Below are positions 5,088-62,962 of a stretch of DNA of 64,000 nucleotides, piece after piece (position 1 is the stretch's first letter; each line of letters begins with the position of its first letter). Made by a program: the position numbers and the translations under genes. The stretch comes from Oscillospiraceae bacterium (lineage in GTDB: Bacteria; Bacillota; Clostridia; Oscillospirales; CAG-272): assembly GCA_015065455.1 (NCBI GenBank), contig SVQI01000001.1, positions 61,090-125,089 of the forward strand. The letters are read 5' to 3'. The notes below the pieces were generated by a model. It saw only the letters and a list, made by a program, of their open reading frames with translations, was not told the DNA's origin and did no database searches.

Positions 5088-6905
5088 ATGAAAAAGTCAT
5101 TGTTGGCATTATTTTTAGCACTCGTTATGTGTTTGTCCCTTTTCTGCACAGCTTGTAGCAGTTCTGGTGATGAAGAAAACCCCGACGTTCTTAATACCTC
5201 GGAGTCTGACATCGCACCTATGACTATTACGCTTTACGCTCCGACAAACAGTACGACAACAAAAGATCAGGTAAAGCTCGTTGAAGCTGAATTTAACAAA
5301 GTTACAGAAGCTAAATTCAACACTCACGTTGTTTTTAACCTTATTCCCGAAGATGACTACGAAGAGGTTATCTACTCCAGACTCGAAGGCCTTCGCAAGC
5401 AGGCTGCAGCAGAGCTTGAAGATGAAACAAAGAAACCTAACGTTACTCCTCTTTCCGACAATTCAAAATATCCCGGTATCAAAGACAACCAGCTTGATAT
5501 ATTCTTGGTAAACACCTTTGAAACATATTACGCTTTGGCTACGGGAACATACTATAAGCCCGAAAATAACGAATTACCCGAAGGCGCGCTTTATCCCCTC
5601 GATGAATCACTCAAAGAAAAAACTACTCTTCTTAACTCATATGCATACCCCTACTTGCTCCGCGCAGCAAGAATAGACGACCTTGATACAGGTACACAGG
5701 GTGTATTCGGTGTATTCAACAACACTATTTTTGGTGAATACCAGTACCTTTTGCTCAACAAAGAGCTTGTTGACAAGTACAACTACGACCCCGAAAATAT
5801 GTTTGACCTTTCTTCTATCTCTCTCTTCTTGAAGGAAGTTAAGCAGAACGAAGCAGGCGTAATTCCCTTCCTCGGAGACCTCGAAGCTCCCGTTGAATAC
5901 TTTAACGGTACAAAGTCACTTATCGGCGCTTACGTTGGAAAAGATTATACTTCTTCCGGCACAATTAACGCTACAAGCTACCTTCCCGCAGCAACCGCAC
6001 CCAACAACCTCTTTAACTCAGCTGAGTACAGAGTATGGATGAGAGAATACAACTCTCTCTTTAATGCAGGTTGTTTCGTTGCAAAGACAGATGCAAACGC
6101 TAACTCCAAGTTTGCAGCTACAGTAGTTACAGGCGACGTAACACTTTCTCCCACATACGCTGACGTATACGGAAACTACAAGGTTGACGATTACGGTTTC
6201 AAGTATATTACATACGAAGACGGTGTTGATTACTACGTATCAGTTTACAAAAGACCCGTTGCAAATGACGAAAACGTATTTAAGGCAGGCTATGTTGTAG
6301 GCGGTTACACAGAAGACGCTGACCGTTGTATGGAAATTATTCAGGCGCTCAACACAGACGCTAAGCTCGCTAACCTCTTCATGTACGGTGTTCAGGATGT
6401 TCACTATACACTTAACGTTGACACAAACGTTGTTCACAAGACAACAGATACATATTCGATGGATATCGAAACTGTTGGTAACATGTACTTGCTCAATCCT
6501 TCCGACGATATGGATGAGTATTGGAAATTTATGAGCGCTAACAAATGGCAGAACGCAAAGAATACAAACCTCGAAGCAGTTATGAGTCCCTTCCTTGCAT
6601 TCCACTATGACCCTGAGCAGCCCGCTGAAGACGAACTTGAAGCAGGCAAGGTTTACATCGATATGTCTTTTGAAGAAGTTATGGCTGAAATCGAAAAGCT
6701 TTCTCCTGCATTCTACGAAAAGGCACTTCACTACGTTGAAACTCCCGAACTTCCCTTTGCTGACTACATTAAGACAGTATATACAGAAGTTTCCGAAAAC
6801 GAATACGTAAGTTCTATCGGTAGCTTTGATAAGGGTATGTACAACATGCAGCTTATCTACAAAGAATGGTATCAGGCTCACTACAACGTAAAGCTTGCTG
6901 ACTAA
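5088..6905 (+). CDS. Large secreted lipoprotein, possibly a solute-binding-protein-like fold; function unknown
   Basis: The N-terminal signal peptide ends in ...SLFCTAC-SSSGD, a lipobox-like Cys. There is a strong RBS (AGGAGG), a consensus promoter upstream and a terminator downstream. No transporter genes are adjacent. Confidence 0.6.
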   Translation: MKKSLLALFLALVMCLSLFCTACSSSGDEENPDVLNTSESDIAPMTITLYAPTNSTTTKDQVKLVEAEFNKVTEAKFNTHVVFNLIPEDDYEEVIYSRLEGLRKQAAAELEDETKKPNVTPLSDNSKYPGIKDNQLDIFLVNTFETYYALATGTYYKPENNELPEGALYPLDESLKEKTTLLNSYAYPYLLRAARIDDLDTGTQGVFGVFNNTIFGEYQYLLLNKELVDKYNYDPENMFDLSSISLFLKEVKQNEAGVIPFLGDLEAPVEYFNGTKSLIGAYVGKDYTSSGTINATSYLPAATAPNNLFNSAEYRVWMREYNSLFNAGCFVAKTDANANSKFAATVVTGDVTLSPTYADVYGNYKVDDYGFKYITYEDGVDYYVSVYKRPVANDENVFKAGYVVGGYTEDADRCMEIIQALNTDAKLANLFMYGVQDVHYTLNVDTNVVHKTTDTYSMDIETVGNMYLLNPSDDMDEYWKFMSANKWQNAKNTNLEAVMSPFLAFHYDPEQPAEDELEAGKVYIDMSFEEVMAEIEKLSPAFYEKALHYVETPELPFADYIKTVYTEVSENEYVSSIGSFDKGMYNMQLIYKEWYQAHYNVKLAD

Positions 6906-6921
6906 TTTAAAATAATTACAA

Positions 6922-6955
6922 AGCTCCCCGAAAAAATCGGGGAGCTTATTTTTAT
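6922..6955 (+). terminator. Intrinsic terminator of the lipoprotein gene
   Basis: AGCTCCCCGA-aaaaa-TCGGGGAGCT followed by a T-rich run. Confidence 0.8.
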
Positions 6956-6957
6956 TA

Positions 6958-7203
6958 TAAAACGGGCGGACAAACAAATCCGCCCCTACATAGTTAGGCT
7001 TTATTGTCTTGCTGTGCGTGTTCGAGATCCTTCGCTGCGCCGCCACGATGTCATTCTTGAGCGAAGCGAAGAATCCCGTGGCGGCTTGCTCAAGGATGAC
7101 AAACGAACACGCAATATAACGCGCTCCCGCGTTTTTTTAAAAGAGGCACAGATTGTCAGCTTCTTCGCTCCCGAACTCTTGACACCGCAAAAACTTTAAA
7201 TAG
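6958..7203 (+). repeat. Mosaic intergenic repeat, locus F (modules R, K, degenerate T, truncated H)
   Basis: Near-identical to 23425-23700 over the R and K modules. Lies in the convergent spacer between the lipoprotein gene and rplS. Confidence 0.9.
7015..7113 (+). repeat. Module K copy (orientation a)
   Basis: TGCGTGTTCG ... CGAACACGCA terminal inverted repeats enclose interleaved repeats B-C-D-B'-C'-D'. The C/C' pair is CCGCCACG/CGTGGCGG. Confidence 0.85.
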
Positions 7204-7235
7204 ATAATCATTTATTATTTTTCTATATTATTTTC

Positions 7236-7279
7236 AAAAAATAAAAACCCGATGGAAGATTGTTTCTTCCGTCGGGTTT
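7236..7279 (-). terminator. Intrinsic terminator of rplS
   Basis: Minus strand: AACCCGACGGAAG-aaacaat-CTTCCATCGGGTT followed by TTTTTATTTTTT. Confidence 0.75.
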
Positions 7280-19025: not shown

Positions 19026-19030
19026 AACAA

Positions 19031-19064
19031 GAGAGCGACACAAATTCGCTCTCTTTATTTTTTG
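19031..19064 (+). terminator. Intrinsic terminator after the lipid kinase gene
   Basis: GAGAGCGA-cacaaat-TCGCTCTC followed by TTTATTTTTT. Confidence 0.8.
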
Positions 19065-19590: not shown

Positions 19591-19708
19591 AAAAGATACA
19601 TTTTTAAAAAACCGAGGCGTCGAGGAAGGGGTTCCCCGAAACGCACGAAGTAAGTTTTGGGGGTTCTCGTGTGCGCCGTCCCCTACCAAATTAGGCAATA
19701 CCACTTTT

Positions 19709-19840
19709 GCAAACCAAGGGGGGTACCGAGGGAGGAACGCCCTCGGTCGTTTCAAGGGTTGGGTTCAAAGGGAGGGGAAATCGAAATCCCCGCCCTTTGT
19801 GCCTTCTTTGGTTACTTTCTTGGCACGCAAGAAAGTAACG
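19709..19840 (+). repeat. Module S copy 2
   Basis: Same architecture. The G-rich hairpin is AAAGGGAGGGGA-aatcgaaa-TCCCCGCCCTTT. Invariant hairpin at 19811-19839. Confidence 0.7.
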
Positions 19841-19933
19841 TAAAAAAGCAAAAGACAATATTATCTAATTAAAACGTTTGCTTTCTCTCCCTCAGTCAAC
19901 TTCGTTGACAGCGTCTACTGCGGTTCGGTCACG

Positions 19934-19981: not shown

Positions 19982-20170
19982 ATTTAACGCGCTCTCGAAC
20001 CCTTGACAAAAGGGGCTTTTTAAAAAAAGCCCCTCTTGACTCCCCCAAAACTTTTAATAAAAATTTTTATATTATTATTTTAAAATAATATTTTAATTGC
20101 GCTTTTTGAAAAAAACTCCTTTGAAATCCGCAAAAACTTTAATAAGAATTTTAATTCTTATGCTTTGTGA

Positions 20171-23424: not shown

Positions 23425-23700
23425 AAAACGGTCGGACAAACAAATCCGCCCCTACATAGTTAGGCTTTATTGTCTTACTGTGCGTGTTCTAGATCCTTCG
23501 CTGCGCCGCCACGATGTCATTCTTGAGCGAAGCGAAGAATCCCGTGGCGGCTTGCTCAAGGATGACAAACGAACACGCAATATAACACGCTCCCGCGTTT
23601 TTTAAAAGGAGTCCATACAATCAGGAGCTTCGCTCCCGAACCCATACAAAAGGAGCGCTTTTAAAAAAGCGCCCTCTTGACTCCCTCAAAACTTTAAAAA
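23425..23700 (+). repeat. Mosaic intergenic repeat, locus F2 (modules R, K, T-like, H)
   Basis: Aligns with 6958-7203 and 62596-62820. Confidence 0.9.
23481..23579 (+). repeat. Module K copy (orientation a)
   Basis: Near-identical to 7015-7113. Confidence 0.85.
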
Positions 23701-39402: not shown

Positions 39403-40239
39403 ATGAACAACAACATTCAAGCAAGAACTCCCACAAGAAGAAAAAGACCACCTCAAAAGAAGTACAACAAAACAGGCAGACTTTTGCTCGTTATGGCGGT
39501 AGCTTCATTGTTAGCAATACTCGTAATATTTATTGTTGGATTTATTATAGGATACAGATACATTACGGTAAAAACAGACGACGGAACTATTAAATATTTT
39601 GGCACCGTTGATGCTACCGGTATGCTGAAAAAAGGCACTCTTTATTTCTCAAACGGAAACAAAGGTCTGGTTGACGGCAAAAAGAGTACAATAACCTATA
39701 CAAACGGCGACGTTTATACCGGCGGATTATCCCAGCTTCAGAAAAACGGCGAGGGAACACTGAAATATAAGAACGGAGACGTTTACGAGGGTGGATTTAA
39801 GGACAATCAGTTCTCGGGAAAAGGCGTATTTAAATACAAAAACGGAGACGTTTACGAGGGCGAATATAAAGAAGGTCTTATGGACGGAGAAGGAAAATAC
39901 ACCTGGTCCGACGGCTCTTCTTACGAGGGTGAATTTAAAGCAAACAAGCGTAACGGCCTCGGAAAATTTACAATAACCGATAGCTCATACTACGAAGGCA
40001 GCTACGTGAATGATGCAAAAGAAGGCAAGGGTAAGTATGTTTTTGAAAACGGCGACGTTTACGAAGGCGACTACAAAGCCGACATCAGAACAGGCAAAGG
40101 CACGTACACCTGGGCAAACGGTGAATGCTATACGGGTGATTTTGTAAACAACGATATGCACGGCTACGGCAAATACACATGGCCAAGCGGCAGAGTCTAC
40201 GAAGGCAAATTCCATCAGGGAAAAATTGTTGTTGAATAA
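39403..40239 (+). CDS. MORN-repeat membrane-anchored protein
   Basis: One N-terminal TM helix, then about 9 tandem repeats of Y.NGD.YEG....G...G.G. Confidence 0.75.
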   Translation: MNNNIQARTPTRRKRPPQKKYNKTGRLLLVMAVASLLAILVIFIVGFIIGYRYITVKTDDGTIKYFGTVDATGMLKKGTLYFSNGNKGLVDGKKSTITYTNGDVYTGGLSQLQKNGEGTLKYKNGDVYEGGFKDNQFSGKGVFKYKNGDVYEGEYKEGLMDGEGKYTWSDGSSYEGEFKANKRNGLGKFTITDSSYYEGSYVNDAKEGKGKYVFENGDVYEGDYKADIRTGKGTYTWANGECYTGDFVNNDMHGYGKYTWPSGRVYEGKFHQGKIVVE

Positions 40240-40248
40240 TAGAAATTT

Positions 40249-40281
40249 AATGCGCTGTTTTAACAAACAGCGCATTTTTTA
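40249..40281 (+). terminator. Intrinsic terminator after the MORN-repeat gene
   Basis: AATGCGCTGTTT-taac-AAACAGCGCATT running into TTTTTT. Confidence 0.75.
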
Positions 40282-40287
40282 TATTAT

Positions 40288-40960
40288 GTTGTCGGGTCGG
40301 AGGGAGAGATAATTGTTAATTATTTGATTGCAATATTGTTTGTTTAAACCGTTCATTTTTCTCTCCCTCAGTCAAAAACAAGTTTTTGACAGCTCCCTCG
40401 TCAGATGGAGCTAAAAGATACATTTTTAAAAAATCGGGACGTCGAGGAAGGGGTTCCCCGAAACGCACGAAGTAAGTTTTGAGGGTTCTCGTGTGCGCCG
40501 TCCCCTACCAAATTAGGCAATACCACTTTTGCAAACCAAGGGGGGTACCGAGGGAGGAACGCCCTCGGCCGTTTGAAAGGGAGGGGTCAAGGGGAGGGGA
40601 GGATCGGAACTCCCTCTCCCCTTTGTGCCTTCTTTGGTTACTTTCTTGGCACGCAAGAAAGTAACGTAAAAAAAGAAAAGACAATATTATCTGTTTAAAA
40701 CGTTTGCTTTTCTCTCCCTCAGTCAAAAACAAGTTTTTGACAGCGTCTACTGCGGTTCGGTCACGGCTCGGCTCTGACATCACACCGTGATGTCATTCAC
40801 TCCCTCGCCGCCGCTTCGCTACCTCGTCAGATGGAGCCGAGAATTACGCGCTTCGCGCGTAAAAAGACACAGAATGTCAGCTTCTTTGCTCCCAAACCCA
40901 CACAAGAGGAGAACTTTTAAAAAAGTGCCCTCTTGACTCCCTCAAAACTTTTAATAAAAA
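40288..40960 (+). repeat. Mosaic intergenic repeat, locus C (5'-truncated N, L, S, N-arm fragment, degenerate K, T, H)
   Basis: 40291-40666 aligns almost base for base with 19466-19840. Confidence 0.9.
40531..40666 (+). repeat. Module S copy 3
   Basis: Same architecture. Invariant hairpin at 40637-40665. Confidence 0.7.
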
Positions 40961-45342: not shown

Positions 45343-45760
45343 GAGGGTACCGAGAAAAAAACATTTTAACCCCCAAAAAACAAAAAGTATAACCTAACTT
45401 TCCATCTTTTGCAAACCAAGGAGGGTTCCGAGGGAGGAACGCCCTCGGCCGTTTGAAAGGGAGGGGTCAAGGGGAGGGGAGGATCGGAACTCTCCTCCCC
45501 TTTGTGCCTTCTTTGGTTACTTTCTTGGCACGCAAGAAAGTAACGTAAAAAAGAAAAGACAATATTATCTGTTTGAAACGTTTGCTTTTCTCTCCCTCAG
45601 TCATTTTCTAACGAAAATGCCAGCTCCCTCGTCAGATGGAGCCGAGAATTACGCGCTTCGCGCGTAAAAAGGCACAGAATGTCAGGAGCTTCGCTCCCGA
45701 ACCCACACAAAAGGAGCGCTTTTAAAAAAGCGCCCTCTTGACTCCCCCAAAACTTTTAAA
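45343..45760 (+). repeat. Mosaic intergenic repeat, locus D (S with an alternative leader, N right arm, T, H)
   Basis: Starts 2 nt after the stop codon of the GT8-acyltransferase fusion, with no terminator in between. The S module is near-identical to locus C. Confidence 0.9.
45411..45545 (+). repeat. Module S copy 4
   Basis: The G-rich hairpin AAGGGGAGGGGAG-gatcggaa-CTCTCCTCCCCTT pairs fully with one G-T. Invariant hairpin at 45516-45544. Confidence 0.7.
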
Positions 45761-55694: not shown

Positions 55695-56117
55695 ATAAAA
55701 CAAAAAGTATAACCTAACCTTCCATCTTTCGCAAACGATGGGGGTGCAAAGGGGGTAATCCCCCTTTGTCGTTTGGTGGTTGGGGGTCGAGGGGGAGGAG
55801 GAATCGGAACCTCCGCCCCCTTGTGCCTTCTTTGGTTACTTTCTTGGCACGCAAGAAAGTAACATAAAAAAGAAAAAGACAATATTATTTAGCCAAACAA
55901 TACGTTTTAAAACAAAAAAACGCTCTCGCGTTTTTCAAAGGAGCACAAACAATCAGGAGCTTCGCTCCCGAACCCACACAAAAGGAGCACTTTTGAAAAA
56001 GTGCCCTCTTGACTCCCTCAAAACTTTTAATAAAAAATTATATATTATTTTTTAAGATAATATTTTAATTACGCTTTTTGAAAAAAGCTCCTTTGGAATC
56101 CGCAAAAACTTTTATTA
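55695..56117 (+). repeat. Mosaic intergenic repeat, locus E (S with an alternative leader, partial T, H, H')
   Basis: It shares the leader ACAAAAAGTATAACCTAAC(C/T)TTCCATCTT with locus D. It has the invariant hairpin at 55835-55863 and H modules at 55980-56117. Confidence 0.9.
55731..55864 (+). repeat. Module S copy 5 (most divergent)
   Basis: Hairpin 1 is replaced by the unrelated CAAAGGGGG-taat-CCCCCTTTG. The G-rich hairpin is GGGGGAGGAGG-aatcggaa-CCTCCGCCCCC. Invariant hairpin at 55835-55863. Confidence 0.7.
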
Positions 56118-60107: not shown

Positions 60108-60163
60108 TTCTCTAATTCAAAAAAGTTTTGCAAATTTGACCTCCTTATGAGGAGATAAAATTA

Positions 60164-60262
60164 TGCGTGTTCGATTGTCATCCTTGAGCAAGCCGCCGCG
60201 AGATTCTTCGCTACGCTCGAGAATGACAACGCGGCGGCGCAGCGAAGGATCCCGAACACGCA
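60164..60262 (-). repeat. Module K copy (orientation b, inverted relative to its downstream flank)
   Basis: The 79-nt interior equals the reverse complement of the interior of 62647-62745 at every position I checked by hand. Confidence 0.85.
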
Positions 60263-60343
60263 ATTTAACGCGCTCCCGAACCCACACCAAAGGTGCTTTT
60301 TGAAAAAAACTCCTTTGGAATCCGCAAAAACTTTTAATAAAAA
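60164..60343 (+). repeat. Mosaic intergenic repeat, locus G (K in inverted orientation, then an H/H' hybrid)
   Basis: 60164-60262 is the exact reverse complement of the K core at 62648-62744. The downstream flank AATTTAACGCGCTCCCGAACCC is in the same orientation as at locus H. Confidence 0.9.
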
Positions 60344-60459
60344 TTTTTTATATTATTTTTTCAAAATAATTATCTTTTGTTTTCCTGCGCCGACAGCGTT
60401 TACTCTTAAAAAATTCACATAAAATTTAACAAATTTTAGTGTATTTCTTCCAAAAGGTC

Positions 60460-62296: not shown

Positions 62297-62383
62297 CATT
62301 ACGGGCGGATAGCAAAAACCACCCTACTCACAGATAAGGTCAAAGGATAGAAATTGAACAGAGACGAATTTGCACTAACTTTT

Positions 62384-62571
62384 ACCTCCATCTGACGAGG
62401 GAGGTGGCTCGGCAGTCAGCAAATATCAATTTTAATTTATCTTTGCTGCCGAGACGGAGGGAGAGATATGTGTTAGATTTTTGATTGCAATATTGTGTGT
62501 TTAAACCGTTCGTTCTTCTCTCCCTCAGTCATTTTCTAACAAAAATGCCAGCTCCCTCGTCAGATGGAGCT
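62384..62571 (+). repeat. Module N, complete copy
   Basis: Same outer arms (CTCCATCTGACGAGGGAG / CTCCCTCGTCAGATGGAG). The first hairpin is compensated to CTCGGCAG/CTGCCGAG. The third hairpin is replaced by CATTTTC-taac-(A)AAAATG. Confidence 0.8.
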
Positions 62572-62646
62572 AAAAAGTTAGATTATTTCGGGAAAACGGA
62601 CGTATAGCAAAAACGCCCCTACAATTTTAGGGTTTATTGTCTTAAC

Positions 62647-62745
62647 CGCGTGTTCGGGATCCTTCGCTGCGCCGCCGCGTTGTCATTCTCGAGCGTAGCG
62701 AAGAATCTCGCGGCGGCTTGCTCAAGGATGACAATCGAACACGCA
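62647..62745 (+). repeat. Module K copy (orientation a)
   Basis: Same layout. The C/C' pair is CCGCCGCG/CGCGGCGG, a compensated change relative to locus F. Confidence 0.85.
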
Positions 62746-62962
62746 ATTTAACGCGCTCCCGAACCCACACAAGAGGTGCACTTTTGAAAAAGTGCCCTCT
62801 TGACTCCCTCAAAACTTTTAATAAAAATTTTTATATTATTTTAATTGCGCTTTTGAAAAAAGCTCCTTTGGAATCCGCAAAAACTTTAAATAGAAAAATA
62901 TCTTTACATTTTTTTATTAGTATGTTATACTAAAATGAGAGATAATATATATAAAAAAAGGG

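Follow-up and report, generated by a model that had tools for sequence, protein, structure and literature searches.

A dispersed Oscillospiraceae repeat with a predicted triple-helix pseudoknot core that recurs in four bacterial phyla

Introduction

The intrastrand triplex repeats BoxC, PIT and TM_ECO of Escherichia coli and other Proteobacteria (Hoyne & Maher 2000, 2002; PMC4666352) are the nearest described kind to the element reported here, Module S, a structured repeat found in a 64,000-nt stretch of an Oscillospiraceae genome (GenBank assembly GCA_015065455.1, contig SVQI01000001.1, positions 61,090 to 125,089 of the forward strand; hereafter the window). Four classes of intrastrand triplex have been distinguished, class IV being the order Hoogsteen pyrimidine (H), Watson-Crick pyrimidine (Y) and purine (R) (Holder et al. 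2015, PMC4666352). According to the same study, a G/C-rich class II motif of E. coli forms a triplex in vitro, intrastrand triplex repeats are associated with local instability of the genome and with inverted pairs that have undergone partial deletion, and RNA can form intrastrand triplexes of the pyrimidine motif but not those of the purine motif. Like Module S, the BoxC/PIT/TM_ECO repeats are dispersed, strictly intergenic, highly conserved and multi-copy, sometimes form inverted pairs, carry three homopurine/homopyrimidine blocks per strand with inverted and mirror symmetry, follow no promoter, terminator or neighbour-gene logic, and mark strain-variable loci.

Module S also shares features with the repetitive extragenic palindromic (REP) sequences and their mosaic and doublet forms, the bacterial interspersed mosaic elements (BIMEs) and REPINs, short structured extragenic repeats whose gene-end mosaics are found preferentially in convergent spacers, which can form inverted doublets, function as single strands in folded form and have diverged into genome-specific subfamilies. 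Miniature inverted-repeat transposable elements (MITEs), with terminal inverted repeats and a non-coding, multi-copy and strain-polymorphic character, resemble the form that the motif takes in other taxa. Among RNAs, telomerase RNA, the SAM-II and preQ1-II riboswitches and the ENE/MALAT1 elements resemble its core in that loop 1 is U-rich and runs parallel to the purine strand in stem 2. Holder et al. (PMC4666352) mention neither the GGTTAC/GTAAC family nor a pseudoknot, and in the literature on triplexes, pseudoknots and bacterial repeats we found no description of this family, that paper being the only relevant one; literature matches to the motif's sequence strings were unrelated primers only.

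Results

Module S in the window

The 39-mer GCCTTCTTTGGTTACTTTCTTGGCACGCAAGAAAGTAAC has five exact matches in the window (at 507, 19801, 40627, 45506 and 55825), all on the + strand, and none would be expected by chance (100 dinucleotide shuffles). A sequence-only reading of the same DNA had described five co-oriented + strand copies of a structured unit, in which the 3' hairpin and the preceding GCCTTCTTTG are identical, and the exact matches confirm both points. It had placed the copies correctly but ended the studied copy at 40666; the conserved unit is longer, from ~40525 to ~40693, and alignment of the five units spans ~170 nt with a mean column identity of 85%. The copies are as follows.

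405 to 575, + strand: Module S copy 1, subtype A; pseudoknot core at 505-545
19703 to 19868, + strand: copy 2, subtype C; pseudoknot core at 19799-19839
40525 to 40693, + strand: copy 3, the studied copy, from the five-copy alignment and a 15-copy, two-species alignment
45405 to 45572, + strand: copy 4, subtype B; pseudoknot core at 45504-45544
55725 to 55892, + strand: copy 5, subtype D with a variant hairpin 1; pseudoknot core at 55823-55863

Copy 3 consists, from 5' to 3', of a leader, hairpin 1, a G-rich segment, hairpin 2, the candidate triplex pseudoknot, an A-rich tract and an AT-rich palindrome.

40548 to 40568, + strand: hairpin 1, CCGAGGG-aggaacg-CCCTCGG
40576 to 40587, + strand: G-rich segment AAAGGGAGGGGT, which mirrors the purine arm of hairpin 2; candidate reverse-Hoogsteen third strand
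40589 to 40623, + strand: hairpin 2, AAGGGGAGGGGAG-gatcggaa-CTCCCTCTCCCCTT; the stem varies by subtype and stays paired
40625 to 40629, + strand: S1a (GTGCC), 5' strand of helix S1; partner GGCAC at 40648-40652
40630 to 40637, + strand: L1 (TTCTTTGG), candidate pyrimidine third strand; mirrors 40642-40647 and is Hoogsteen-parallel to AAGAAAG at 40655-40661
40637 to 40665, + strand: S2 hairpin, GTTACTTTCTTG-gcacg-CAAGAAAGTAAC, with a distal 5-bp clamp (GUUAC/GUAAC) and a 7-bp part that would bear the triplex
40666 to 40693, + strand: A-rich tract and AT-rich palindrome (GTAAAAAAAGAAAAGACAATATTATCT), kept in the window copies

A pseudoknot core with a candidate parallel third strand

The invariant 3' part of Module S had been taken for a hairpin preceded by GCCTTCTTTG. 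The invariance stands, but the structure is a predicted H-type pseudoknot with a candidate triple helix, in which the hairpin loop is paired to the 5 nt that precede TTCTTTGG. This assignment is made because S1a pairs and covaries with the 5' part of the loop. In the 88 copies whose inner loop measures 7 nt or more, the best register of S1 contained 4.25 Watson-Crick pairs out of 5, compared with 2.97 ± 0.08 when loops were swapped and 3.13 ± 0.07 when the upstream 7 nt were shuffled, and 49 distinct S1 helices occur among the copies. A fixed-register, gap-free alignment of 30 copies showed changes on both sides in four of the five pairs; the number of cells changed on both sides (35 versus 18.1 ± 3.1) and the covariation score (0.182 versus 0.092) were reached in none of 500 shuffles. 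The core is ordered as S1a (3-6 nt), L1 (a pyrimidine run and then GG), S2a (GUUAC, a pyrimidine run and G), S1b, 1-3 nt, and S2b (C, a purine run and GUAAC).

L1 (TTCTTTG) is the mirror of the pyrimidine arm of S2, so that it runs parallel to the purine arm in the Hoogsteen sense. A mirror repeat originates neither by duplication nor by inversion, and its halves do not form Watson-Crick pairs; a parallel third strand is therefore its natural explanation. Within the variable part of 127 distinct copies, C faces G at 74 of 85 positions and T faces A at 280 of 295, so that 354 of 380 positions of L1 are compatible with the purine arm, compared with 201 ± 9 in shuffles. This match is kept through 24 different purine runs, for example AAGAAA, AAAGAGAAA, AAGAGAAA, AAAGAAAAA, A5-7 and GAAGAAA. 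L1 was nearer to the parallel Hoogsteen partner in 22 of 24 asymmetric variants, 13 of them perfect mirrors, and nearer to the Watson-Crick partner in none, and a role of L1 as a Watson-Crick partner was rejected on this count. Taken over ~145 copies from four phyla, the S1 pairing and the match of L1 to the purine arm both covary. Where the purine run contains GG, L1 matches it with 5'-GC-3' and never with CC, as avoidance of adjacent protonated cytosines would explain. Triplex formation itself is what this register suggests.

The distal clamp covaries as well, GUUAC/GUAAC being replaced by GUGAC/GUCAC and CCUAC/GUAGG (Pasteurella) and by CUUAC/GUGAG (Ralstonia), and T.G pairs occur in the clamp of five viral-contig families and of Ralstonia. 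As can be seen from the window copies, the blocks TTCTTT(G) / CTTTCTT / AAGAAAG follow the class IV order, with 6-7 triads in the window and up to 10 elsewhere (e.g. L223). The H-Y connector consists of GG and the 5-bp clamp, and the Y-R loop of 5-8 nt is paired to S1a; the ITxF search definition of intrastrand triplex motifs, with at least 6-8 triads and 1-6-nt loops, does not foresee such a geometry.

If the triplex forms, L1 (UUCUUUG) would lie in the major groove of stem 2 and make ~6-7 T.A-T / C+.G-C triples with AAGAAAG, leaving the S1/S2 junction parallel to S2b in the deep groove, as the known H-type topology suggests. After ~7 triples, the two G residues would cross the remaining 5-bp GUUAC/GUAAC clamp to reach the 5' end of S2a. 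Such a 5-bp span is covered by 1-2 nt in classical pseudoknots.

Hairpin 1, hairpin 2 and the G-rich segment

Upstream of the core, hairpin 1 is CCGAGGG-loop-CCCTCGG in four of the five window copies and CAAAGGGGG-taat-CCCCCTTTG in copy 55731. The latter form is present in three sequences of the 15-copy, two-species alignment, with both sides of the stem changed, and RNAalifold counted CG->AU and GC->AU double changes in this hairpin, in agreement with the sequence-only reading that it is paired in both forms. Its description of hairpin 2, a G-rich hairpin whose stem differs while its loop is conserved, also holds: the loop is [AG]ATCG[AG]AA throughout, and in all 17 combinations of left segment, arm and loop found in the window and in the related genome SIG632 (below), pairing is intact. 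The 14 stem variants of hairpin 2 comprise 151 Watson-Crick pairs, 11 G.T and only 2 A.C, which fits a fold of the + strand only, as had been proposed from the wobbles. The + strand is also the better folder, with RNA folding energies of -65 to -76 kcal/mol compared with -55 to -60 kcal/mol for the - strand (12-16 better on +); folding z-scores are ~ -5 to -6.7 on both strands. Selection for a single-strand fold on the + strand, claimed earlier, is thus upheld by covarying stems and conserved loops.

The G-rich segment mirrors the purine arm of hairpin 2, with U/T facing A, and the two probably constitute a class I intrastrand triplex of the purine/GT motif, as judged from this symmetry. Summed over eight types, the mirror score is 61 versus 37 ± 4.3 in shuffles. 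Mirror and direct repeat are discriminated by two types, those of 55731 (subtype D), whose G-rich part reads GGUGGUUGGGGGU / CG / AGGGGGAGGAGG, and of L017, where it reads AGGGGUAGGAGU / CA / AGAGGAGGGGA. Three unrelated lineages (L019, L110 and L235) have a perfect class I unit immediately 5' of the core, and a strict class I triplex pattern upstream of the core was found in 7 of 157 copies versus 1.3 ± 1.1 in shuffles, a suggestive but weak excess. Alternatively, the segment could be part of a G-quadruplex that competes with hairpin 2 and with the purine-type triplex, the G-rich region of subtype A (453-481) being a canonical G-quadruplex motif, G4-TA-G5-TTAC-G5-T-G5.

RNAalifold further predicted a closing helix between the leader CNAAGGAGG (e.g. 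40536-40545) and CCUUCUUUG (L1, 40628-40637) that uses G.U pairs and would compete with the triplex. The leader CNAAGGAGG is also a mirror of GGGAGGAAC in hairpin 1.

Occurrence of the motif in other bacteria

A scan of one genome per species, in which stem 2 only was fixed (GGTTACTTTCTTG-N5-CAAGAAAGTAAC), matched an Oscillospiraceae metagenome-assembled genome, SIG632, and further single loci in Rhodocyclaceae, Porticoccus, Cellvibrionales, Saccharibacteria and another Clostridia genome. All six matches outside the Oscillospiraceae carry (T)TCTTTGG directly upstream, although the scan specified stem 2 alone. BLAST of plasmids and chromids revealed the motif, never annotated, in Ralstonia (134 records), in Caballeronia and Burkholderia (up to ~20 places per replicon), and in Paraburkholderia, Variovorax, Chitinibacter, Pasteurella, Subdoligranulum and Ilyobacter (7 places), and a metagenome scan anchored on TTTGGTTACTTT...AAAGTAAC yielded at least 120 loci with at least 129 further distinct copies. 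The motif is present in Bacillota, Fusobacteriota, Pseudomonadota and Patescibacteria, and at least nine motif families are found on viral contigs; E. coli genomes gave no match to the core.

On phage-like contigs, a terminator-like hairpin follows the motif on the same strand. Two prophage-like loci (L069 2183-2800 and L082 7158-7760) each have two direct motif copies 568 nt apart, in a tandem duplication between phage structural genes.

Inverted pairs and strain polymorphism

In other taxa, the motif forms the inverted termini of elements of 115-1000 bp in Ralstonia, in Pasteurella and at ~10 metagenome or viral-contig loci. Whenever two copies form an inverted pair within 1.1 kb, the S2b (3') side faces outward (13 of 13, including L074, L121 and L122); only two inward-facing pairs were seen, and both enclose genes. 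The glgX-glgB spacer of Ralstonia (loci L121, L243 and L244) exists in three states: empty in strain MAFF241647, occupied in strain SL3755 by a solo hairpin flanked by inverted copies of the small hairpin that follows it, and occupied on the GMI1000 megaplasmid (L121 ~2115-2550) by a 450-bp element with inverted motif termini of ~75 nt. No target-site duplication was found at the Ralstonia element junctions. The interior of the GMI1000 element contains G-rich hairpins with the conserved loop CTGAGCGAAGCGAGTTTG, which is also present at the Rhodocyclaceae locus L004. Likewise, a ~420-bp element between a DUF484 gene and dapF of Pasteurella multocida (L122 2130-2545) has two inverted motif copies with runs UUUUCUUUG/AAAAGAAAG and UUUCUUUUG/AAAGAAAAG and with different clamps. 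A Pfam search of open reading frames (ORFs) near the AT-rich family returned nothing informative.

Copies and turnover in a related genome

SIG632, which is syntenic with the window at 75-89% nucleotide identity, contains at least 28 further copies of Module S in 26 stretches, many of them at contig ends. Over 33 copies from both species, the 39-mer shows three substitutions, all in the loop, and the hairpin-2 stem subtypes are common to the two species. The sites are not kept to the same extent: orthologous site 1 is occupied by subtype A in the window and by subtype B in SIG632 (L001), and SIG632 has S in spacers that hold other modules in the window (6803-7238, 60108-60409 and 62297-62895). 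The spacer arrays have been fully rebuilt between the two species. In SIG632, other AT-rich hairpins replace the A-rich tract and palindrome, and eight copies (L002, L003:4273, L006, L013, L018, L021, L024 and L025) have the 3' arm of hairpin 2 interrupted by a 45-nt hairpin, an insertion apparently accompanied by duplication of 5 nt (CACCC or CTCCC).

This 45-nt module, GGGGTTCCCCGAAAC-GCACGAAGTAA-GTTTTGGGGGTTC, has a constant loop and a covarying stem (AAAC/GTTT, AGCT/AGCT, AACC/GGTT). It also lies upstream of two window copies (19625-19675 and 40447-40497, + strand), in the orientation opposite to that of the SIG632 insertions.

Genomic setting and orientation

All five window copies lie downstream of a + strand coding sequence, as had been reported, but three of them are located beyond the intrinsic terminator of that gene (302-333, ~19027-19062 and 40249-40276) and four lie between convergent genes; copies 45411 and 55731 precede any terminator. 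The invariant hairpin itself is followed by an A-rich tract and did not appear in a terminator scan, so that an intrinsic terminator, already discounted by the sequence-only reading, is ruled out. The copies sit in ordinary chromosomal surroundings: flanking genes are of the housekeeping kind and encode an HD phosphohydrolase, a diacylglycerol (DAG) kinase, a GDSL lipase, a MORN-repeat protein, an HTH regulator, a glycosyltransferase, YmdB, RNase Y, a DUF5722 protein and acetate kinase.

The upstream gene is co-oriented with the motif in four of four cases in the window and in 11 versus 5 in SIG632. Upstream genes in other taxa show no bias (57 same versus 51 opposite), and the downstream gene there tends to converge (77 versus 46). 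Within the window-syntenic region, all 11 copies of both species (at least nine sites) are on the window + strand, which carries 84% of coding bases and would be the lagging-strand template if genes follow replication; this co-orientation fits either transcription direction or a lagging-strand template. Neighbouring copies are co-oriented on four SIG632 contigs, and motif orientation in SIG632 is not linked to the local gene majority or to the neighbouring genes.

The window spacers that contain S are mosaics of many repeat modules. A 53-nt hairpin (AAGAGGGGCTTTTT...AAAAAGCCCCTCTT) followed by GACTCCCYCAAAACTTTTAAT makes up an 11-copy family that often shares spacers with S and lies directly 5' of it at 342-394.

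342-394, 20006-20058, 23646-23698, 40902-40954, 45707-45759, 55978-56030, 62769-62821 and others: 53-nt hairpin family

The module TCTCTCCCTCAGTCAAAAACAAGTTTTTGACAGC flanks copy 3 of S as a direct repeat (40355-40395 and 40712-40745), and a variant of it follows copies 2 and 4. A promoter-like sequence on the - strand, TTGCAA-17-TATACT (45414-45386), is located where the 5' edge of S lies and is directed into the 3'-terminal part of the upstream gene; copy 5 (~55734-55706) keeps it as TTGCGA-17-TATACT. The 69-nt tandem repeats at 39694-40079, inside the MORN-repeat gene, are ordinary protein repeats.

Comparison with described repeats and RNAs

TM_ECO belongs to class II (Y-R-H) and is G/C-rich, with 9-nt blocks in the arrangement CCCTCNCCC-N3-6-GGGNGAGGG-N3-GGGNGAGGG, whereas the core of Module S is of class IV (H-Y-R) and pyrimidine motif, with mostly T.A-T and single C+.G-C triples, and adds the 5-bp clamp (GGTTAC/GTAAC) and the loop pseudoknot helix. 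As far as it can be read from sequence, the core represents a new variant among the known intrastrand triplex repeats, of pyrimidine type and with a pseudoknot. BoxC/PIT/TM_ECO are of the same chemical type (purine motif, G.G-C) as the G-rich segment and hairpin 2 of S; the TM_ECO/BoxC consensus itself is absent, subtype A hairpin 2 having CCCTCACCCCC and GGGGGTGGGGG in H-R-Y order (class I) with an 8-nt loop.

Compared with REPs and REPINs, Module S lacks the 5' GTAG/GGAG tetranucleotide that adjoins their imperfect palindrome of 20-40 nt and carries UUUGG-GUUAC instead. REPs are species-specific imperfect palindromes, whereas the core of S is kept between phyla and has a predicted triplex pseudoknot fold, and no gene for a REP-associated tyrosine transposase (RAYT) was found among 10,467 ORFs of the window and all loci in a search with IS200/RAYT-like queries. 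The differences from MITEs are that a target-site duplication and a parent insertion sequence (IS) were not found, that the termini are ~75 nt long and structured, and that S is single-ended in the window.

RNA triplex pseudoknots have the same topology as the core (S1a-L1-S2a-S1b-S2b), and their U.A-U runs are likewise broken by single C+.G-C triples. Those RNAs are functional, exist in single copy and have ligands, protein partners or poly(A) tails, whereas S is a dispersed repeat; the core shares a fold mechanism with telomerase RNA, SAM-II and ENE/MALAT1 without belonging to their families. Natural RNA triple helices of solved structure are reported to contain no more than six triples (PMC7102945), compared with up to 10 consecutive potential triples here (e.g. 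L223).

The sequence-only reading had named a match to a known Rfam family as a result that would refute it. No Rfam family reached its gathering threshold in the window or in the 19 loci scanned, the further metagenome motif loci gave no Rfam match, no tRNA or tmRNA was found in the window, and E-value scans of three regions returned nothing except weak matches to Clostridiales-2 (RF02937) at 40533-40597 and 45414-45477. These score 23.0 and 22.2 bits, below the gathering threshold of 58.6. The 82-nt model aligns with the leader of S, hairpin 1 and the GUUU...GUCAAGGGGA that comes after it, and has no hairpin 2 or pseudoknot. RF02937 may be remotely related to the 5' half of S, and perhaps corresponds to the 5' portion of similar repeats elsewhere in the Clostridia.

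Integron attC sites, IS608-type guide/cleavage pairing, TnpB/IscB guide RNAs, riboswitches (SAM-II, preQ1-II), self-cleaving ribozymes and IS circle junctions were each considered and dropped, the defining sequence features, the associated genes or Rfam matches being absent.

Discussion

Any account of Module S has to accommodate a repeat whose S1, L1 and clamp covary, which has spread across phyla, serves as inverted termini in several taxa and is polymorphic between strains. Module S is one module of BIME/REP/MITE-like mosaic arrays in gene-end spacers, and we propose, with a probability of roughly 0.5, that it is a non-coding, structure-constrained, non-autonomous selfish repeat whose spread or maintenance is signalled by its single strand in folded form, probably as DNA. 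The fold would act on single-stranded DNA, either the lagging-strand template or a transposition intermediate, and the folded strand would be the recognition or maintenance signal of a selfish element that an enzyme presumably mobilises in trans. The upstream G-rich hairpin would provide a second, purine-type triplex, and occupied spacers would become unstable as a side effect. DNA is favoured over RNA as the acting form because a purine/GT-type mirror unit lies upstream of the core (in S, L019, L110 and L235) and purine-motif triplexes are reported not to form in RNA (PMC4666352), and because 11 of 11 copies in the syntenic region are on the 84%-coding strand, the would-be lagging-strand template. 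Mobile-like behaviour speaks for the proposal, namely the outward-facing inverted pairs, the three states of the Ralstonia spacer, the nested 45-nt hairpin, the rebuilt spacers and the different subtypes at orthologous site 1, as does a neutral location between convergent genes, beyond terminators and next to housekeeping genes. BoxC/PIT/TM, with triplexes in vitro and unstable loci, offer a precedent.

Several observations weigh against this proposal. A selfish repeat would not usually keep the sequences of its clamp and of UUUGG from phylum to phylum, and such conservation would fit an interaction with a universal host machine. The support for the core triplex is sequence covariation, whereas the proposal presumes that the triplex forms, and for TM_ECO an in vivo triplex signal was not seen (PMC4666352). 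In addition, ordinary pairing of L1 with the G-rich segments is predicted by RNAalifold and by single-sequence folds, for which reason alternative conformations of Module S are possible, and in most subtypes the G-rich segment fits a direct repeat as well as it fits a mirror, which leaves that relation ambiguous. As to mobility, no transposase, RAYT or other shared protein was found within 3 kb of ~170 motif loci, where the protein clusters are only syntenic prophage or unknown families; no IS200/RAYT-like member was found among the 10,467 ORFs searched with these queries, and the ORFs inside inverted pairs have no Pfam match. Window copies of S are solo and co-oriented and have no inverted partner, and comparison of window and SIG632 spacers defined neither a target-site duplication nor a clean empty site of S; its insertion boundaries are unreadable because whole arrays differ between the species.

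A more general view can be put forward tentatively, at odds somewhat below even: GGUUAC...GUAAC would mark a hitherto undescribed cross-phylum class of natural single-strand triple-helix pseudoknots, with 6-10 consecutive triples in a selected register, used either as a structure-specific end signal of non-autonomous mobile elements, whose folded strand some enzyme would read, or as an RNA 3'-end cap.

Function at the RNA level is a rather doubtful but serious alternative to a DNA-borne selfish repeat. A triplex pseudoknot transcribed in mRNA tails or by read-through would be a mechanical cap that halts polymerases or 3'-5' exonucleases, the role played by REP elements in E. coli and by ENE/MALAT1 triple helices in eukaryotes. 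RNA is able to form intrastrand triplexes of the pyrimidine motif (PMC4666352), the topology is that of known RNA triplex pseudoknots, and the G.U wobbles fall on the motif strand. Position is consistent with such a barrier too: the motif sits at gene 3' ends with the upstream gene co-oriented in the window (4/4) and in SIG632 (11 versus 5), copies 45411 and 55731 come before any terminator, phage-like contigs have the terminator-like hairpin after the motif on the same strand, and symmetric inverted pairs between convergent genes would serve both transcripts. However, three of the five window copies lie past the terminator of the upstream gene, the orientation bias is lost in other taxa (57 versus 51), copies come and go between strains and are dispensable, and as RNA the G-rich mirror unit upstream of the core would make no triplex.

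It is unlikely that the motif is an immobile non-B DNA by-product with no signal function, which stalls replication and spreads or decays by template switching, slippage and gene conversion, the apparent covariation being the survival of foldable variants. Such a by-product would account for the tie between intrastrand triplex repeats and instability with hairpin-keeping partial deletions (Holder et al., PMC4666352), a deletion product that the Ralstonia solo-hairpin state resembles, and for the failure to find a transposase at the ~170 loci or a target duplication in the window and SIG632 spacers. But slippage fails to explain how the motif reached dozens of unlinked spacers, as well as phage contigs and plasmids, in four phyla, and the near-invariance of the core within a genome, the conservation of subtypes in two species and the constant outward inverted termini (13 of 13) are left unexplained.

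The sequence-only reading had favoured a functional structured RNA or a protein-recognised ssDNA/RNA element, of which the constrained fold stands, the protein-recognised element may still hold and the discrete RNA gene is not supported. A stand-alone multi-copy sRNA or ligand-binding RNA is highly improbable: covarying stems, conserved loops, strong folding z-scores and the weak 5'-half match to Clostridiales-2 (22-23 bits, E 0.003-0.007 in a small search) speak for it, but that match is far under the gathering score, no promoter/terminator pair frames the unit, three of five copies lie past the terminator of the upstream gene, S is a module of mosaic arrays with nested insertions, rebuilt between species, variably present at orthologous sites and oriented independently of genes in SIG632, and its core forms inverted termini in other taxa.

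Natural triple helices with covariation support are rare. Here the candidate third strand tracks the purine strand through 24 run sequences in at least four phyla, which is near-maximal comparative evidence for a base-triple register. In practical terms, S-type repeats break metagenome assemblies, many copies lying at contig ends, and reshape gene-end spacers. The motif is a defined and abundant test object for the question, open since BoxC/PIT, of whether intrastrand triplexes form and act in bacteria, and as which nucleic acid. A role at the ends of mobile elements would point to mobilisation through the reading of a folded strand; a role as RNA would make the motif a bacterial counterpart of ENE/MALAT1, with a triple helix that caps the 3' end.

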